Below, in pieces: positions 2,851 to 10,715 of a stretch of DNA of 64,000 nucleotides. The DNA is from an uncultured delta proteobacterium. GTDB lineage: Bacteria > Desulfobacterota > Binatia > UBA9968. A program made the position numbers and the translations under genes. Position 1 is the first letter of the stretch, and the number at the start of each line of letters is the position of its first letter. The notes under the pieces are model-generated. The model was not told the origin of the DNA and searched no databases. It was given only the letters and a program-made list of their open reading frames with translations. The DNA lies in contig CAVYTU010000015.1 in NCBI GenBank assembly GCA_963771465.1, forward strand, positions 192,001-256,000, written 5' to 3'.

Positions 2851-2879
2851 TTGACTCCCTTTCCGTCAGACTATAAATT
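2851..2879 (+). promoter_or_regulatory. putative sigma70 promoter for the cupin-eutA genes
   Basis: TTGACT-17 nt-TAAATT about 100 bp upstream of the AAGGAGG RBS and ATG 2984. Confidence 0.4.
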
Positions 2880-2983
2880 GATTGAATACATGCGCCGATC
2901 TTAAGCAGTTTGTTCTTTGCCGAGTCCGCAGATTCTGATCGATATAAGATCGTCACGACAACAACATCTTCTAAGGAGGCATT

Positions 2984-4180
2984 ATGGATCATCCGACCGA
3001 GCAGGCATTTAAGGAACCGACAGACAATAAAACCAGGGCCGGACTAGGGAAATTTCTCCGGCCCAACACGCCTTATGACAACTTCATGGAAGCGCAGGGG
3101 ATTCCGATTTATCGCGATATCGGCGTGCGCCGGGTGCAGGACTTGCCACGCAAACCGTGGAAGCGCATGGGCGGCAACGGCACGTTTATTCAACTGCTCG
3201 GCACCGAAGGGCTGTGGGGCAGTTATGTCGTCGAAGTTCCCGGCGCCGGGGCGTTGAATCCTGAAAAGCATCTCTACGAAGAGCAGTATCTCGTCGTTGA
3301 CGGCCGCGGCACGACGGAAGTCTGGGTAGATGGCAATCCAAAGAAGCTAACCTTCGAATGGCAGAGAGGTTCGATCTTCGCCATTCCGATGAACGCGACG
3401 CACCGCATCGTCAACGCCACTTCCAGTCCAGCACTCTTATTAGCTGGGACCACGGCGCCAAACATTATGAACAACTTCGGCAATGAAGATTTTATCTTCA
3501 ATTGTCCCTATCAATTCAAAGACCGCTTCGATCCCACCGACGATTATTTCAAATACAAAGAAGATGTGACGCCTGACCCCTTGCGCGGTCTCGCCATGCG
3601 CAAGACCAACATCATTCCCGACGTCATGAATTGCGAACTGCCGATGGATAACCGCCGCTCGCCGGGCTATCGGCGCATCGAACCGCATATGGCGGGACAG
3701 CATTTCTATTTTTGGATCGGCCAACATGAAACCGGCCGCTATTCCAAAGCTCACGCGCACGGCTCCGCCGCGGTGCTGATCTGTCTCAGCGGCAAAGGCT
3801 ACACTTACACCTGGCCGTCGAAGTTGGGCACGCATCCCTGGGAAAAAGGCACAACGGAAGAAATCCGCCGCCAAGATTACGAGCCAGTCGGCATGGTCAG
3901 CGCGGCGCCGATGAGCGGCAACTGGTTCCACGCCCATTTCGGCGCCAGCAAAGAGCCTCTGCGTCTTACCGCCTGGTTCGGCCCCAATGCGCCAGGACGT
4001 GACCGTGGCCGTCCCGGCGAAAAAGCGATCGACTACGGCGCCATCGACATGAAAGACGGCGGCACTGCGGTTCCATACAACGAAGAAGATCCCTTCCTGC
4101 GTAAAGAATTCGAAGAGACGCTAGCGGCCGTTGGCGCCAAGTCGCGCATGGAGCCCGATCTTTACAAGAACTCCTACTAA
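2984..4180 (+). CDS. bicupin metalloprotein (gentisate-dioxygenase-like fold)
   Basis: Two cupin motif sets: EKHLYEEQYLVVDGRG...PMNATH and SKAHAHGSAAVLICLSGKG...NWFHAHF; strong RBS. Confidence 0.85.
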   Translation: MDHPTEQAFKEPTDNKTRAGLGKFLRPNTPYDNFMEAQGIPIYRDIGVRRVQDLPRKPWKRMGGNGTFIQLLGTEGLWGSYVVEVPGAGALNPEKHLYEEQYLVVDGRGTTEVWVDGNPKKLTFEWQRGSIFAIPMNATHRIVNATSSPALLLAGTTAPNIMNNFGNEDFIFNCPYQFKDRFDPTDDYFKYKEDVTPDPLRGLAMRKTNIIPDVMNCELPMDNRRSPGYRRIEPHMAGQHFYFWIGQHETGRYSKAHAHGSAAVLICLSGKGYTYTWPSKLGTHPWEKGTTEEIRRQDYEPVGMVSAAPMSGNWFHAHFGASKEPLRLTAWFGPNAPGRDRGRPGEKAIDYGAIDMKDGGTAVPYNEEDPFLRKEFEETLAAVGAKSRMEPDLYKNSY

Positions 4181-4191
4181 ACTCGTCTCGC

Positions 4192-4252
4192 GTCCAGCGT
4201 CTGGGTTCTAAGGTACCAATGAATTCCAGACGCTGGACTCTTAACTTTTTTA
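4192..4252 (+). terminator. intergenic hairpin with T-rich tail (terminator or attenuator-like)
   Basis: GTCCAGCGTCTGG (4192-4204) and CCAGACGCTGGAC (4226-4238) form a perfect 13-bp inverted repeat followed by TCTTAACTTTTTT. Confidence 0.5.
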
Positions 4253-4268
4253 CTGAATAAGGATTTCA

Positions 4269-5753
4269 ATGGCCACCGCACCTAGAGGTTCGTTTTCCAA
4301 TGCCAACCGCCACATGCAGGACGAAGAAAATCTTCGGCTCACCAGCGTCGGTGTCGATATCGGCTCCTCGACATCGCATCTGGTATTTTCCCGGCTCGAA
4401 CTGACCCTCGAAGGTTCGCGTTATCGCGTGACCAAACGCGACATCTTGAACGAATCGCAAATACTGCTCACACCCTACGTCGACGACACCCGCATCGATG
4501 TCGAAGCGCTCGGCGCGTTTATCAACCAGCAATACAAAGACGCAAAAATTCGCCGCGAGGAAGTCGACACCGGCGCATTGATTCTGACCGGCGTCGCCGT
4601 GCGCCGGCGTAACGCCCGCGCTATTGCCGATCTATTCGCGCAGGAGGCCGGCAAATTCGTCGCCGTTAGCGCCGGCGACGGCCTTGAAGCCACCATGGCT
4701 GGACACGGCTCGGGCGCGGTGGCGCACTCGGGAAAGATCGGCGGCGTAGTTTTGAATATCGACGTCGGCGGCGGCACGAGCAAGTTTGCGCTTTGTAACA
4801 ATGGCAAGGTGCAAGAAGTTTCCGCCATCGACATCGGCGCGCGCCTGCTGGCTTTCGACAACGACGGCGCCATCGTGCGCATCGAAGAGGCGGGACGAAA
4901 ACACGCCGCCTGGGCCGGCTTCGCCGTCGAACTCGGACAGAAAGTTTCAGAAGAAAATCTGCGCAAGATGGTCGCGGGGATGATGGATAAGCTTTTTGCC
5001 ATGCTGAAGCCGGAGCCGCTTAGCGATGACGTCAAGAGTTTGCTCCGGCTGCCGTCGCTTACGTTCAAGGGCGAAATTGATTGCGTGATGTTTTCCGGCG
5101 GAGTATCCGAGTTTATTTACAATCGGAGTAAATCGACTTTCGGCGATCTTGGGCCGCTGATCGCCGACGAGGTGCACCGGCGCATGGCCGACTTGGATCT
5201 GCTGGTGATGGAACCCAACGCGCGCATTCGCGCCACCGTCATCGGCGCCTCCCAGTACACCGTCCAGGTGAGTGGCAATACCATTTTCATTGCGCCCGAC
5301 GACGCTGTCCCGGTGCGCAACGTCGGCGTCGTCGCGCCGGAGTTCCCGCTCAACCAAGAGGATTTCACCAAAGAGCAGGTTCGCGATGCGCTGCTCAGCG
5401 CGCTGCGCCGGCTCGACCTGCTGCACGGTCGCCAGCCCGTCGCCGTGGCGTTTCACTGGGACGGCTCAGCGACCTTTCACCGGCTGCAAGCGTTTTGCAG
5501 CGGTGTCGTCGAAGGGCTCAAAGATATTATGGCCAAAGGCCACCCGCTTATTCTGGTCAATGACGGCGACATCGGCGGCATTGTCGGCCTTCACTTCCAG
5601 GAAGAGTTAAAAATCGACAGTGCCATTGTGTCCATCGACGGCATCGCGCTCAACGACTTCGACTACATCGATGTTGGCGCTCTGATTCCCTCGTCGGGCT
5701 CGGTACCCGTCGTCATCAAATCGCTGATCTTCCCCGCCTCGCCGCAAGAATAG
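4269..5753 (+). CDS. eutA: EutA-like reactivating factor (ASKHA ATPase)
   Basis: SVGVDIGSSTSHLVFSRL, DTGALILTG, LNIDVGGGTS, FSGGVSE, IRATVIGASQYTVQVSGNTI and C-terminal VPVVIKSLIF match EutA signatures. Confidence 0.85.
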   Translation: MATAPRGSFSNANRHMQDEENLRLTSVGVDIGSSTSHLVFSRLELTLEGSRYRVTKRDILNESQILLTPYVDDTRIDVEALGAFINQQYKDAKIRREEVDTGALILTGVAVRRRNARAIADLFAQEAGKFVAVSAGDGLEATMAGHGSGAVAHSGKIGGVVLNIDVGGGTSKFALCNNGKVQEVSAIDIGARLLAFDNDGAIVRIEEAGRKHAAWAGFAVELGQKVSEENLRKMVAGMMDKLFAMLKPEPLSDDVKSLLRLPSLTFKGEIDCVMFSGGVSEFIYNRSKSTFGDLGPLIADEVHRRMADLDLLVMEPNARIRATVIGASQYTVQVSGNTIFIAPDDAVPVRNVGVVAPEFPLNQEDFTKEQVRDALLSALRRLDLLHGRQPVAVAFHWDGSATFHRLQAFCSGVVEGLKDIMAKGHPLILVNDGDIGGIVGLHFQEELKIDSAIVSIDGIALNDFDYIDVGALIPSSGSVPVVIKSLIFPASPQE

Positions 5754-6031
5754 CGATCGTATCTTCACTGCGAATCCAAAATGCCGGGAAGGTTTTTTAA
5801 TCTCCCGGCATGGACGGCGCCAAGGCCACAGTCTGCACAAGCGATTGGCCGTGATGCCGGCGACTACCCCATCTCATCGGTGGATCTTGGCAGAAAACTA
5901 TCCAGGCCCGATTTAGCGCCAAATGTGCGCACAAATGTCTCCCGTTGGACAAGAAGTTTCCCGACTCGGGGTAATCCGGGCAAGCTATTGGAAACTCGTC
6001 AGATTTATCACGCGAACGGGCGAATACTCGC

Positions 6032-6060
6032 TTGACTTTGGGGGCGCATACGCATAGATA
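6032..6060 (+). promoter_or_regulatory. putative sigma70 promoter
   Basis: TTGACT-17 nt-TAGATA upstream of ATG 6087. Confidence 0.4.
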
Positions 6061-6086
6061 GTTGCGCCAATAACTGAGTCAACTGC

Positions 6087-6914
6087 ATGTCCAAGTACCG
6101 CGCCCGGCTTTGTCCGAACTGTAATTTCTTTATCGGCTTTGCGATCACTCAACATCGCACCCACGGGATCAAGTCCTCGCTGACGAATTTTTGTCTCAAT
6201 TGCAACTATAAGCTGCCTGTGCTTAGTATTATTCGTGGGGTTAGAAAATCATCCCGACCGACACGACACCACTCGAAGCTTCGACTCGTTGGCGCCACGC
6301 CGCCGTCCGCCAGCGTTGGCGTTGGAACTAAAACTATGGAAGCGAGAATAAGCCCAAGCGATTATGCTCGTCATCTAAGAGCGATCGGACAGGACCTGGA
6401 AAATCTCCATTTGAGGGCATTCAATCTCGAATGTACCGGCAGCGCCTATTTGGTTTGGGTTCGTTTCGAGGAGCAGCCCGAAAGCAGCAATCCGCTCTTT
6501 CGTATCAGCCGCAACCGGCTGCAAAAACTATGGCGTAACAAGATTCCGCCGCGCGTCCTCGGCCAGGAAGAACCCTATCAGCTTCCCTCTGCCGAGACTG
6601 GCAGGAGATTACGTTATTCGGTCGCCGAGCTGGACCGCATTGAGCGCGAACAGCGCGCCCGGCGGCGCCAGCAAAGCGGCACCGCCGACGGCCATTCGCT
6701 CTCCCAGTTACTGCGCACCATTGGCGATCTGGCTGGACGAAAGAACGAACGGTTGTTAGGCATTTCCTGGCAGGAACTTTCAGTCAGTATGGTAGTTGAA
6801 ACGCCGGAAGGCCGTAAAGAGATCGATGTTTTCCGGCCAGACAATCTCTACGATCAGTGGGTTAGAATGTATCTGCGGCGCGACAACCTCGCGTTTTCCG
6901 ACCCGTCACGCTAG
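6087..6914 (+). CDS. hypothetical protein with N-terminal Zn-ribbon-like motif
   Basis: CPNC...CLNC at the N-terminus; internal repeat LRAIGQ / LRTIGD. Confidence 0.7.
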   Translation: MSKYRARLCPNCNFFIGFAITQHRTHGIKSSLTNFCLNCNYKLPVLSIIRGVRKSSRPTRHHSKLRLVGATPPSASVGVGTKTMEARISPSDYARHLRAIGQDLENLHLRAFNLECTGSAYLVWVRFEEQPESSNPLFRISRNRLQKLWRNKIPPRVLGQEEPYQLPSAETGRRLRYSVAELDRIEREQRARRRQQSGTADGHSLSQLLRTIGDLAGRKNERLLGISWQELSVSMVVETPEGRKEIDVFRPDNLYDQWVRMYLRRDNLAFSDPSR

Positions 6915-6964: not shown

Positions 6965-8863
6965 TTAGTGTTGGCGCATCGCCGCGCCGGCGCGTTCTGT
7001 GATAAGCAATAACTGTTCGTGCCCGGTCACGAGCTTGGCCAACGGCGCCGGAATTTGCAAAACAAACGTCGACCCCTGCCCAGCGCGACTCTCGACATGC
7101 ACCTTTCCGCCGAGCAGATCGACGTACTTCTTGACTACGTAAAGTCCGAGACCCATGCCGCCGCGCTGCATCCTCGCATCGGCGTCGTGAACTTGGCGGA
7201 ATCGTTCGAATACCGCGGCGATCTGTTCCTCAGGAATCCCCACGCCGGTGTCGGCGATGGTAAAATACAACATTTTTTTAGCCGCTAGATACTTGGTCGA
7301 AACGGTAATCGTGCCGTGATCGGTGAATTTGATGGCGTTGTTGATCAGATTTTCCAATATCCGTTTGAGCTTGCCCCGGTCACCCTGGAGAGTGGGAAAG
7401 TCGTCCGGATAGTCCCAAACGAATTTTACATTTTTCCCCAGCGGCTGGTCATATTGCAGTCTTAACTCGGAAAGGAACTCCCAGAGGCTCATGTCCTGCA
7501 ACTGGATGCGCAATGTCTCCGCCTCCATGGAGCTCACCTGGAGCACGCTGTTGATTAGGCGATTAAGATCTTTGGACTGGCGCGCCACGGTTTCGATCGC
7601 TTTTTCCTGGATCGGCGTCATCGAACCGAGCAATCCATCGCGAAACATATCTGTGTAACCGGTAATCACACTAAGCGGCGTCTTGAGCTCGGTGGTCACC
7701 GCTTTCAAAAAATCATCTTTGATGTGATGGGCATGACGCAGTTCTGCGCCTTGCTGCTGGCTGCGATCGTATAATTGCACGTGATGGATAGCGATCGCCG
7801 CTTGTCCGGCGAGGGTCGATAAAAAATCCACTTCATCGGCGCCAAACTGATGCGCCTCACGGGTGAAAAACGCCAAAGCGCCGAGCGCCTCATTGTTGGC
7901 GATCAGCGGCAAATCGAGAAACGCCACCAACCCTTCATCTTTCAATAATTGGAGGTGCGCGACCTCGGGGTCGGCAAAAGCATTGCCAACGGTCAATGGG
8001 ATAGCTTCGGTTACGACACGATCGATGAAATTGAGCAGCTCTTTTGACTCGCTAAAACGCGTCATATCAACGCCCCGCGTCGCCGCCGTTTCAAGCAGCC
8101 CGGTATCATGGCTCTTGAGCCGCACGATCGCCGCCGCGTAGGGCAGATGAATCAGCGCGCAGTCGAGAAATGCCTCCAGAATCTTGGCACTATCGATCGT
8201 CGAGGTCACCGACAAGTTAACTTTATGCAAAACCTCCAGGCGCTCCCGTTGGCGACGAATTTCTTCCGCCGTTTTTTGTTGGCGCTGGACTTGTTCTTCC
8301 TTCTGCCGAGCGCTGCGCCGCATCCGTGCAACTTGGGCGAAATAGCCGTAGAAAAGCGAAATGACATAAGGAAACGGCAGCCGCAGATAGATTTCCGGCG
8401 GTAGCACAGCGGCAGAACTAAACACCGAGTACGCATATATGGCCGGCGCCAGGAAGGTAACGACGAGCAGTCCGCGAACATCATTACAAATCGTGCTCAA
8501 CACCAAAGTCGTAACGCAAGCTATTAAGAAATCGGTGTTGGCAGTGCCGCTAAAACTAAGCGCGACGGCCAGAACCAGCGAATCAAACACCAGTAACGGC
8601 CCGTAAAAATAGGGCGAATCGAATAAGTCGTCGGCGACAAAATACAAGGTGGCGTGACTCAGGAGATAAAGACTCAAAATCGCCTGCACTTGATTCGCGG
8701 TCAACCACGCCGCCGGACTGTAATAGAGAAGATATGAGGACAGAATCACCAGCGGCCAGCGCAATCGGATGACCGTGTCTTTTTTAGCCGCATCGAAGAT
8801 GCGGTCTAGACTCCAGCTGCGCGAATTCGCGTGTGTGGAGTTGATAGCGCGGGTTGTGTCCAT
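6965..8863 (-). CDS. membrane GAF sensor histidine kinase-like protein
   Basis: N-terminal TM helices, GAF, HisKA-like region (VTTELKTPL) and HATPase (NLINNAIKFT, DTGVGI, GMGLGL, GQGSTF). Confidence 0.9.
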   Translation of the reverse strand: MDTTRAINSTHANSRSWSLDRIFDAAKKDTVIRLRWPLVILSSYLLYYSPAAWLTANQVQAILSLYLLSHATLYFVADDLFDSPYFYGPLLVFDSLVLAVALSFSGTANTDFLIACVTTLVLSTICNDVRGLLVVTFLAPAIYAYSVFSSAAVLPPEIYLRLPFPYVISLFYGYFAQVARMRRSARQKEEQVQRQQKTAEEIRRQRERLEVLHKVNLSVTSTIDSAKILEAFLDCALIHLPYAAAIVRLKSHDTGLLETAATRGVDMTRFSESKELLNFIDRVVTEAIPLTVGNAFADPEVAHLQLLKDEGLVAFLDLPLIANNEALGALAFFTREAHQFGADEVDFLSTLAGQAAIAIHHVQLYDRSQQQGAELRHAHHIKDDFLKAVTTELKTPLSVITGYTDMFRDGLLGSMTPIQEKAIETVARQSKDLNRLINSVLQVSSMEAETLRIQLQDMSLWEFLSELRLQYDQPLGKNVKFVWDYPDDFPTLQGDRGKLKRILENLINNAIKFTDHGTITVSTKYLAAKKMLYFTIADTGVGIPEEQIAAVFERFRQVHDADARMQRGGMGLGLYVVKKYVDLLGGKVHVESRAGQGSTFVLQIPAPLAKLVTGHEQLLLITERAGAAMRQH

Positions 8864-9114
8864 AGCAGAATTTCTGAGTGAGTGCGCAGTTACGACAGAT
8901 CAACGTCAATGACGTAAAACTGCATTTAACATGCCAGTGCTACCGTCTGATTGCACTTGGCTCGGTCAAAAATTCCACAAGGAATCCAATGAGTTGTCAC
9001 TGTGGGAGAATCGATCGCGGAAAACTTCTAACGAGCCAACGGCCAAATTACACCGATGTGGAACATTTTTGTCAGGGCCGGGTGAATGACCGACATGATC
9101 GATGAATGGGGCGA

Positions 9115-9140
9115 ATTTGTTCGGACATGTCCGAACAAAT
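9115..9140. repeat. perfect 26-bp palindrome
   Basis: ATTTGTTCGGACATGTCCGAACAAAT equals its own reverse complement. Confidence 0.9.
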
Positions 9141-9167
9141 CGATCCTGCATGCGGCAATTCGGTAGA

Positions 9168-9638
9168 CTATGCGCGCAGTTTTTCCTGCGCCGCGCGCAC
9201 TGCTCGCAGGATATCGGCATAACCGGCGCAGCGGCAAAGATTGCCGGCAAGATATTCACGTATTTCTTCATCGCTAGGATTGGGATTCTCTTCGAGCAGC
9301 ACTTTTACTGAGAGCACGAAGCCGGGTGTACAGTAGGCGCATTGCAATGCCCGCTCCTCGACCCACGCTTGCTGGATCGGATGGAGCGACTCACCGTCGC
9401 TCAACCCTTCCACAGTCGTAATATTGTGTCCGGCAGCGCGTGCCGCGAGTAAAAAGCACGAGCTCACCGGCTTGCCGTCGAGCAATACTGTGCACGTCCC
9501 ACAGGCGCCGACACCGCAGCCTTCGCGCACGCTCCAAAACTTGAAGTGATCGCGCAAGACTTCGAGCAGTGTGTCGGCGTCGTCGATGGCGAAGCTCTCC
9601 ACGCGCTGGTTGATCGTAAGTGTGATGTCGCGCTTCAT
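9168..9638 (-). CDS. molybdenum hydroxylase small (2Fe-2S) subunit, CoxS/CutS-like
   Basis: EGCGVGACGTCTVL, QCAYCTPG, GNLCRCAGY. Confidence 0.93.
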   Translation of the reverse strand: MKRDITLTINQRVESFAIDDADTLLEVLRDHFKFWSVREGCGVGACGTCTVLLDGKPVSSCFLLAARAAGHNITTVEGLSDGESLHPIQQAWVEERALQCAYCTPGFVLSVKVLLEENPNPSDEEIREYLAGNLCRCAGYADILRAVRAAQEKLRA

Positions 9639-9695
9639 CGTTTCAATCCCTTACCGCGGCCGCGATTGTCCGTACACTGCGAAGTTTGCCACGGG

Positions 9696-10550
9696 CTATC
9701 CGTTCAGTTGCTCGATCGCCTTTTTGGTAAACAACCGCGCCATCCGCCGCTTGTACCACTCCGAGCCGCGCAAGTCGGACGACGGCGAAATTTGCTCATC
9801 CACCGCGGCTAAGATCTTTGTCATCACCGCGTCATCGAGTGTCTGGTCGTGGGCGAATTCTAAACCGGAAAGCAAAAGCGGCGTCGCCGCCACGCCGCCC
9901 AGCGCGACACGCAACTCCTTGCATCGGCCGTTTTCCTTCAGCAAGAACGCCGCCACACCCACACAAGGCCAATCGTTCGCCGACAGTGTACTATAGCGGA
10001 GATAAACCGCTTTGCTGTTGGCCGGCATAAGAGGAATCTTTACTTCGGTAAGAATCTCACCGGGTTCGAGCACGGTTTCATACACGCCGCGGAAAAAGCT
10101 CTTGAGCGGAATCGTCCGCGCGCCGTTGAGACCAAAGGCCGAAACCTCGGCGCCAAGCGCCAGCAGCGGCGGCGGCGGATCAAGCCGGTAATCCGCGTGG
10201 GCGAGATTGCCGCCCACCGACGCGGTCTGGCGCACGCGCACGTTGCCGATGTGACTGAACGCTTCGGCAACGGCGGGGAACGCTTGGCGAATCATCGGTG
10301 AGAGCTCTACCATGCGATGCGTTGTTAAAGCGCCGATGCGAATGCCGTCAGCCTCTCGCTTAATTTCATTCAGTCCGGGAATCGTCTGGAGATCGACTAA
10401 ATACGGATAGTAAAGCGCACGCTGCTTCATCAAAATCACCAGCGTGGTGCCGCCGCCGATGGCGCGCGCGTCATCGCCGTGTTTTTGCAAAAGCTCCACG
10501 GCTTCTGAAAGCGAGTGCGGTTGCAGCAATTCGAATGAGCGAATCGTCAT
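9696..10550 (-). CDS. molybdenum hydroxylase FAD subunit, CoxM/CutM-like
   Basis: AIGGGTTL, IGNVRVRQTASVGGNLAHAD, SDLRGSEWYKR; start at ATG 10550. Confidence 0.92.
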   Translation of the reverse strand: MTIRSFELLQPHSLSEAVELLQKHGDDARAIGGGTTLVILMKQRALYYPYLVDLQTIPGLNEIKREADGIRIGALTTHRMVELSPMIRQAFPAVAEAFSHIGNVRVRQTASVGGNLAHADYRLDPPPPLLALGAEVSAFGLNGARTIPLKSFFRGVYETVLEPGEILTEVKIPLMPANSKAVYLRYSTLSANDWPCVGVAAFLLKENGRCKELRVALGGVAATPLLLSGLEFAHDQTLDDAVMTKILAAVDEQISPSSDLRGSEWYKRRMARLFTKKAIEQLNG

Positions 10551-10715
10551 AGCTATCTCTAAGATCGCTTCGGTTCTATCCTTCCGTCTTTTCAGAATCA
10601 AGGTCGTGTCGCCGGAAATTTATCTGCGAACGGCGTCGGCAGCACGCCAACTTTATCCGTTTGACAGATAAGCCCAACTTTGAGAAGTATCCGTGACAAG
10701 AGGAGGGTTTAAACC

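Follow-up and report, generated by a model that had tools for sequence, protein, structure and literature searches.

What does an ATPase of the EutA family do when its gene directly follows that of a bicupin and no ethanolamine ammonia-lyase is encoded alongside? EutA is the ATP-dependent reactivating factor of adenosylcobalamin-dependent ethanolamine ammonia-lyase and, to our knowledge, the only characterised member of its family. The arrangement lies in a 64,000-nucleotide stretch of DNA, hereafter the window, from an uncultured delta proteobacterium of the Binatia (GenBank assembly GCA_963771465.1, contig CAVYTU010000015.1, here C15, positions 192001-256000); the host genome spans 6.9 Mb in 19 contigs and is 99.36% complete. 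In window coordinates, the two genes and their Shine-Dalgarno sequences are:

2984-4180, plus strand: bicupin gene, open reading frame (ORF) of 398 amino acids (aa)
4269-5753, plus strand: EutA-family ASKHA ATPase gene, ORF of 494 aa with a PF06277 match
2973-2979, plus strand: Shine-Dalgarno sequence AAGGAGG of the bicupin gene, read from the sequence, 4 nucleotides (nt) before the ATG
4259-4263, plus strand: Shine-Dalgarno sequence AAGGA of the ATPase gene, read from the sequence

A preliminary description of the window had named an adjacent bicupin and full-length EutA-like ATPase here, and we confirmed both reading frames at these positions. On the sequence comparisons below, we consider a bicupin/EutA-like two-gene module, independent of ethanolamine ammonia-lyase, to be firmly established.

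B12 enzymes in the genome and its order

Profile searches of the whole genome returned no match to EutB and none to EutC, with the Escherichia coli control positive. The absence of eutB and eutC that the preliminary description had noted in the window is therefore genome-wide; copies of eutBC elsewhere, the outcome it had named beforehand as speaking against a new system, were looked for in these searches and did not appear. The Dehydratase_LU profile (diol dehydratase large subunit) likewise gave no match in the genome, a weak negative, the profile having been positive in none of the control genomes. Six B12-binding-domain matches were found, all on other contigs and none near any EutA paralogue.

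Among 41 genomes of the same order, our own included, EutB was found in none (0/41) and EutA-family genes in all (41/41, with 2-11 matches each); these tallies include the unpublished genome G005, without which they read 0/40 and 40/40. In three of the relatives, EutA-family matches (G030:C1:1751719-1753137; G032:C18:32183-33598; G037:C1:3929559-3930974) lie inside frames of 1827, 866 and 720 aa, possible fusions or read-through.

Linkage and phylogeny of the pair

Conservation of the cupin linkage had been set as a check on the idea of a two-gene system, and the linkage proved to be conserved. Among 19 close loci, with ATPase identities of 78-93% plus one Bradyrhizobiaceae locus at 55%, the bicupin gene lies directly upstream in 18; the 19th is cut by a contig end, giving 18/18 testable. 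For a wider set we took the best 80 of 567 confirmed loci from an ATPase profile search, containing 79 full-length ATPase matches, and counted a pair wherever a bicupin gene, aligned over at least 330 residues, lay upstream in the same orientation at a gap below 600 base pairs (bp). This gave 57 of 79; with two contig-cut cases and two loci with too little upstream sequence taken into account, the figure is 59/78 testable. The loci come from Binatia, Chloroflexota (Dehalococcoidia/SAR202), Alpha-, Beta- and Gammaproteobacteria and Acidobacteriota (Bryobacterales), with Ensifer sp. IC3342, Phyllobacterium sp. LjRoot231 and a Rhizobiales isolate as cultured members. The pairing extends over bicupin identities of 94% to 29% and at least five phyla, with gene order and strand unchanged throughout. 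None of the wider loci (0/80) showed an EutB or EutC of the E. coli kind within 5 kb; as a control, canonical eutA immediately precedes eutB-eutC in 77 of the 80 loci retrieved with E. coli EutB, the three exceptions being two contig-cut loci and one with a K-12-type prophage insertion.

In 50 of the 57 pairs, conservation is higher in the bicupin than in the ATPase; in the seven exceptions the ATPase is paired with a bicupin from the other major paralogue clade. Some loci carry more than one bicupin: L104 (220-4762) has four tandem paralogues, 29-32% identical to the window's, ahead of one EutA-like gene, and L086 and L074 have two.

The pairing also recurs within the genome itself, which encodes five full-length PF06277 paralogues and 26 full-length bicupin paralogues (32 matches in all), almost all of the latter retaining H257, H259, H316 and H318. 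Three of the five ATPase genes immediately follow a bicupin paralogue in the same orientation: besides the window's, these are the pairs with bicupins at C15:1194591-1195790 (ATPase from 1195934) and C14:626374-627507 (ATPase from 627585). Seen from the other side, only 3 of the 26 bicupins have an adjacent ATPase, and the two closest to the window's (62-63% identical) are unpaired; this proportion is easier to square with an accessory factor than with an obligate catalytic subunit. Examples of other bicupin paralogues lie at C19:2958-4097, C11:136191-137345 and C12:218607-219728, the C11 copy between TctC and Amidohydro_3 genes.

The remaining two ATPases keep other company. That on C18 is flanked by genes for haem-oxygenase-like 'iron-containing redox enzymes' (PF14518); within locus L018 (C18:74001-92000) the EutA-like gene occupies 8392-9861 and the haem-oxygenase-like genes 5567-6340 and 9851-10585, the latter overlapping it by 11 nt. 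Among 13 listed EutA genes of this type from same-genus relatives, 11 have one or two haem-oxygenase-like genes directly downstream. These proteins belong to a further family of non-haem metal oxygenases and would make a second class of clients for EutA-like ATPases. The fifth paralogue, on C12 (L016, 7625-9226), sits beside a DUF4175 gene with no bicupin. The C12-type protein has a His/Asp-rich N-terminus and a His-rich C-terminal tail, and its orthologues in L099, L100 and L102 have 8-10 consecutive His. Weak matches to the Pfam family BcrAD_BadFG occur in the ATPase paralogues.

To place the ATPase, we built a 103-protein tree of the EutA family with IQ-TREE (quick search, LG+G4). One branch, with a Shimodaira-Hasegawa-like approximate likelihood ratio test (SH-aLRT) value of 99, splits 18 eutBC-linked EutAs, which come from Bacillota, Pseudomonadota, Verrucomicrobiota and Planctomycetota, from the 85 others. 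The preliminary description had named grouping with canonical EutAs as a second outcome against a separate system; the window ATPase falls outside the eutBC-linked clade, within a 10-row clade of Binatia-type records (Candidatus Binatia and metagenome-assembled genomes labelled 'delta proteobacterium' or Syntrophobacterales), all cupin-linked. Cupin linkage, as a label on this tree, can be explained by 13 changes, where shuffled labels take 33 on average and 0/500 shuffles are as low. It appears on almost every deep branch, so that pairing looks ancestral to the non-eut EutA clade and repeatedly lost thereafter, although the deep order of the tree is not secure because long branches and compositional outliers were flagged in it.

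In the bicupin tree, the window protein lies in a 38-row clade in which every member is paired, with the genome's own two closest unpaired paralogues as sisters; this tree is biased towards pairs because unpaired bicupins were sampled from this genome only. The two trees have their major groups in common, apparent joint transfers included. Judged by loci and trees together, the bicupin/EutA-like pair is a conserved module, co-inherited both vertically and horizontally.

The two proteins and the surrounding DNA

Pfam recognises the bicupin only over residues 85-157 (Cupin_2/Cupin_1), but its structure model has two beta-barrels, with a predicted local distance difference test score (pLDDT) of 89.7 and a predicted template modelling score of 0.89. 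A structural search with this model ranked gentisate 1,2-dioxygenase first (3bu7, Z 20.8, 288 residues aligned), with salicylate 1,2-dioxygenase (2phd, Z 20.1, 280 residues) and E. coli Z3393 (Z 19.6) also matched; oxalate decarboxylase and the seed globulins (vicilins) score Z ~18, within about 2 Z units of the top, meaning that the assignment is one of fold class, not of function. Other searches were less specific: Foldseek returned generic bicupins only, at template modelling scores of about 0.43, a protein atlas search gave only 'cupin domain-containing protein' clusters, and single-protein sequence searches of the PDB yielded nothing useful. A profile built from 46 family members did match 3bu7 (E 3.8e-7), with the family's N-barrel aligned onto the C-barrel of gentisate dioxygenase. 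Against NCBIfam, no gentisate dioxygenase model matched; the sole match was 5-aminosalicylate 1,2-dioxygenase, which scored 17 bits where the cut-off is 650.

Across 46 orthologues and the 26 paralogues, H257, H259, H316 (invariant), H318, Y253 and K255 of the C-barrel are near-invariant. These form the cupin HxH...H set, with V, I or H at the usual Glu position. The N-barrel carries H96, Y98, E99/E100 and H140, the last replaced by Tyr in about half of the paralogues. The alignments suggest that the C-barrel is probably the metal site, with three or, counting H318, possibly four His ligands, and that the N-barrel site is probably degenerate. The protein had been described as a 'His-rich bicupin'; a bicupin with six conserved His (H96, H140, H257, H259, H316, H318) is the more exact description. 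Gentisate and salicylate 1,2-dioxygenases, 3-His Fe(II) ring-cleaving bicupins, share its fold and 3-His motif, but they are 11% identical to it, their curated models do not match it, and its HxH...H set is in the C-barrel whereas their catalytic 3-His Fe(II) site is in the N-terminal cupin.

The ATPase matches PF06277 (EutA) with 395.8 bits over profile positions 3-474 of 475 and is about 32% identical to E. coli EutA (b2451). Its phosphate motifs, described earlier as intact, are indeed invariant in alignments of 7 sequences, E. coli EutA among them, and of 44 sequences: D30, G32 and T35 in phosphate-1, and D165, G167-G169 and T170 in phosphate-2; the adenosine motif (S276, G277, G278, E281) is equally so. 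Like E. coli EutA, then, the window ATPase has the same Pfam domain over its full length, identical phosphate-1, phosphate-2 and adenosine motifs, and a place next to the gene of its presumed client. Unlike canonical eutA, which lies upstream of eutB, its gene lies downstream of the partner; it also differs in an N-terminal extension absent from 18/18 canonical proteins, in its separate clade, in the lack of eutBC and in having a bicupin for a partner. It scores below every NCBIfam EutA equivalog cut-off (333.8/598, 255.7/769, 237.8/952 and 201.7/799).

The extension has a recognisable signature. The motif [FY][FSTA]x(3-4)R x(2-6) acidic, within 35 residues before phosphate-1, is present in 47/56 cupin-linked and 12/21 unlinked proteins and in 0/18 eutBC-linked ones; the window ATPase has the version FSNANRHMQDEE (FSNANR...DEEN). 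Nearly all non-eut proteins that do not have the motif carry His/Asp-rich extensions instead.

In the ATPase model (pLDDT 87.6), residues 22-332 form an ASKHA core that leads into a C-terminal alpha/beta region, and residues 1-16 are disordered. Its best structural matches are Ppx/GppA-type phosphohydrolases (Z 16.7-14), followed by FtsA, PilM, CoaX, HgdC/BcrAD-type activators (Z 12.7) and MreB, the FtsA/PilM/MreB group scoring Z >=12.5; the diol dehydratase reactivase DdrA (2d0o_A) ranks 37th at Z 10.9. With the DdrAB/GdrAB reactivases and HgdC/BcrAD-type activators, which restore or activate a partner's cofactor with ATP, it shares the ASKHA ATPase fold (Z 10.9-12.7); unlike them, it has no small-subunit gene and no conserved Fe-S Cys, and the match is no better than to many other ASKHA proteins.

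Eight long EutA-like database proteins carry second domains as follows: a major facilitator superfamily (MFS) transporter in four, EutB in one, a methyltransferase-type domain (PF13649/PF08241/PF08242) in one, PF06723 in one, and none in one. Four proteins of 880-898 aa (P0126-P0129), one from Pseudonocardiaceae, join MFS_3/MFS_1 to an EutA-like domain 42-43% identical to the window ATPase, and a 907-aa protein is a fusion of EutB with EutA.

Clues to a metal come from sister lineages. His-rich N- or C-terminal tails occur in 4/56 cupin-linked, 7/21 unlinked and 1/14 eutBC-linked proteins, and four of the genome's five ATPase paralogues have His/Asp-rich N-termini, the window copy being the one without. 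On a Phyllobacterium zundukense plasmid (NZ_CP104971.1, 437569-457005; L199) the cupin/'EutA' pair adjoins a HoxN/NixA Ni/Co transporter and nikR, the annotated order being Rieske dioxygenase alpha subunit, ferredoxin, class II aldolase, cupin, 'EutA', divergent HoxN/NixA and nikR. The same transporter and nikR lie beside the pair in Phyllobacterium sp. LjRoot231 (L083), and in L113 a NicO gene follows the EutA-like gene. Near the pairs of this genome we found no Ni/Co transporter or NikR gene; the only NikR-like (C15:1013024) and NicO-like (C14:354883) genes are both far away. A nickel link for the window copy was rejected for want of support. Distant loci repeatedly have genes for TctC (18 loci), TctA (12), amidase (8), alpha/beta hydrolase (6), UbiD (6) and Amidohydro_2 as neighbours; this set fits catabolism of carboxylic, possibly aromatic, acids, and the bicupin's substrate is probably an aromatic or other carboxylic acid.

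Two further features of the locus are:

4192-4238, plus strand: intergenic stem-loop with a stem of ~17 bp and a T-run ~8 nt beyond, -30.3 kcal/mol
2851-2879, plus strand: sigma-70-like promoter match TTGACT-17 nt-TAAATT, 9/12 consensus positions

The hairpin between the genes, part of the preliminary description, is well supported (z = -3.67; 0/200 shuffled sequences folded as stably). The pair's 'own promoter', from the same source, is not: the region has two matches of 9/12 quality against 1.5 expected from shuffles, no more than chance level, and we do not count the match as evidence. Most close relatives have a long hairpin at the equivalent position, its sequence differing by lineage: in their spacers of about 100-130 nt (L019-L041, L055) the stems are 15-23 bp, with -31 to -55 kcal/mol in most. 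Several of these hairpins resemble families of repeated palindromic elements. The spacers of 23-53 nt in more distant pairs have no hairpin.

Parts of both genes are covered by contigs from four soil or rhizosphere metatranscriptome runs belonging to four studies; several of the contigs align with 0 mismatches. One of 286 nt (4036-4321, 0 mismatches) spans the bicupin end, the hairpin and the ATPase start, and another, X13, extends over the upstream intergenic region too. These are a weak hint that the two genes are expressed, because carry-over of DNA is possible and the contigs show no transcript ends.

Genes flanking the pair are unrelated to it (an AddA-like helicase-nuclease, a PolB-type exonuclease, two ORFs with no Pfam match and a GAF histidine kinase), and their synteny is restricted to close relatives. 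Neither the upstream 181-aa ORF nor the downstream 275-aa and 84-aa ORFs have a Pfam match or any sign of belonging to the unit. The 275-aa ORF (6087-6914, plus strand) has two CxxC pairs near its N-terminus and follows the pair in 12 close loci of Binatia type and in 0 distant ones. Upstream of the C14 pair, the ATP synthase alpha subunit seems to be divided between two overlapping ORFs of 283 and 235 aa (L015:2919-3770 and 3721-4428; C14:621919-623428), each covering part of the nucleotide-binding domain, for which a frameshift or an assembly error is possible.

What the ATPase may do for the bicupin

A role in activating, metallating or reactivating the bicupin, or in coupling ATP to its reaction, remains the best reading of the locus because eutBC is absent, the clade is separate and the cupin linkage is conserved. 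Within it, gene linkage, phylogeny and knowledge of the family lead us to propose, with middling confidence, that the ATPase uses ATP to assist or (re)activate the metal centre of the bicupin. A helper is favoured because the bicupin is the more conserved partner, most bicupins are unpaired, the C18-type ATPase has another metal oxygenase family for its neighbours and features related to metals appear in some clades; it is favoured too because the sole characterised activity in the family, that of EutA, targets a protein. The ATPase would bind the bicupin protein, as EutA acts on ethanolamine ammonia-lyase, and its ATP/ADP cycle would open the bicupin; the opened protein could then have its metal exchanged, if lost, oxidised or of the wrong kind, or shed a dead-end ligand. 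Vitamin B12 would play no part in this cycle. Physical contact, the identity of the metal and the direction of help (loading versus repair) are what we infer for the pair.

Dedicated helpers of metallocentres are known, such as the XylT ferredoxin for catechol 2,3-dioxygenase and the NTPase chaperones UreG, HypB and CooC for nickel enzymes. The pair resembles these in concept, a helper gene beside that of a metal enzyme, with His tails and Ni-transporter neighbours only in sister clades here; the window ATPase differs in being an ASKHA protein, not a ferredoxin or a P-loop GTPase/ATPase, and in having no His-rich tail.

Several observations weigh against a metal-centre helper. The fold is no nearer to reactivases than to other ASKHA proteins, and with Ppx/GppA closer than DdrA, it lends no specific support to a reactivase mechanism. 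Neither family alignment (7 and 44 sequences) contains a conserved Cys, making redox activation by an Fe-S cluster unlikely. About a quarter of the relatives are unpaired: 19/78 testable EutA-like genes have no adjacent bicupin and occur in varied contexts (transposase; aldo-keto reductase with histidine phosphatase; TctA/TctC; alpha/beta hydrolase; UbiD with NicO; DUF4175). No cupin-EutA fusion was found among the eight long database proteins, an absence that is weak evidence. The window ATPase has no His-rich tail (one His in the N-region, none in the C-tail), nor has any member of its 64-row subclade, and only 2/99 loci have a Ni transporter in the pair's vicinity; both leave the metal-loading version weakly supported for the window copy.

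A more general proposal is, in our view, doubtful but possible. EutA-like ATPases outside the eut operon might form a general and so far unrecognised class of ATP-driven (re)activases for oxygen-activating non-haem metalloenzymes; the B12 reactivase EutA would be one specialised branch of this far larger family of chaperones. In most lineages the clients would be 3-His bicupins, elsewhere haem-oxygenase-like di-metal oxidases. N-terminal extensions that differ by subclade, the acidic FSxxGR...EDE here and His/Asp-rich ones elsewhere, might serve in docking or metal binding and so set client or metal specificity.

The strongest competitor to the metal-centre helper, unlikely in our estimate, makes the ATPase a catalytic partner: it would phosphorylate or activate a small molecule (an enol, amide or carboxylate) whose product the bicupin converts. 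ASKHA enzymes of the hydantoinase, oxoprolinase and acetone carboxylase type do activate small-molecule substrates with ATP, and the tight and ancient gene order, the intact ATP motifs, the closeness of the fold to small-molecule and polyphosphate phosphohydrolases and kinases, not chaperones, and the catabolic neighbours that recur in distant loci (TctC, TctA, amidase, alpha/beta hydrolase, UbiD) would all suit such a pathway. It is hard to reconcile with the 23 of 26 bicupin paralogues that stand without an adjacent ATPase, the two closest included, with the faster evolution of the ATPase in 50/57 pairs and the quarter or so of EutA-like genes without a bicupin, or with EutA itself, the sole characterised member, acting on a protein.

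Quite unlikely is a narrower version of the metal-centre helper, in which the ATPase is a nickel (or cobalt) insertase for a Ni-dependent bicupin. HoxN/NixA and nikR beside the pair in two Phyllobacterium, NicO in L113, the His-rich tails of up to ten His in sister subclades and in 4/5 genome paralogues, and the conserved 3-His/4-His bicupin site point that way; the window copy and its 64-row subclade, however, have no such tail, and Ni transporters occur at 2/99 loci and near none of this genome's pairs.

Less likely again, and improbable on present counts, is that the two genes are mere neighbours or co-regulated, with the ATPase serving another client or clients. The 19/78 EutA-like genes without a bicupin, the C18 type with its haem-oxygenase-like genes and the strong hairpin between the genes would be expected of such neighbours. 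Chance or co-regulation would not readily keep the pairing from 94% to 29% identity in at least five phyla at constant order and strand, nor cluster the cupin label on the tree (0/500 shuffles) and give two trees with common major groups and joint transfers.

That this is an ordinary EutA reactivating ethanolamine ammonia-lyase or another adenosylcobalamin enzyme encoded elsewhere is most improbable, and for ethanolamine ammonia-lyase close to refuted: the 395.8-bit PF06277 match, the annotation of homologues and the six B12-binding-domain matches in the genome are outweighed by the absence of EutB/EutC from the genome and of EutB from 40 relatives, the scores below the NCBIfam cut-offs, the position outside the eutBC-linked clade and the lack of a B12-domain gene near any of the five paralogues.

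In public databases, homologues are annotated as 'ethanolamine ammonia-lyase reactivating factor EutA', a label that misleads metabolic reconstruction of abundant soil lineages because its carriers cannot use that function. The search listings and abstract openings returned by our literature searches contained no description of a bicupin/EutA-like pairing. The pair is carried by cultured Sinorhizobium, Phyllobacterium and Ensifer, making the question directly testable; the pairs of Sinorhizobium mexicanum and Phyllobacterium zundukense are 53-55% identical to that of the window. Were the ATPase to assist the metal centre of the bicupin, it would be the first chaperone of the ASKHA type with a cupin enzyme as its client and would explain the upkeep of a very large unstudied bicupin family, with 26 paralogues here and at least 1999 database clusters; its co-expression would then offer a handle for obtaining active bicupin enzymes. 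The pairing points to an undescribed, B12-independent job of the EutA family in many soil bacteria.

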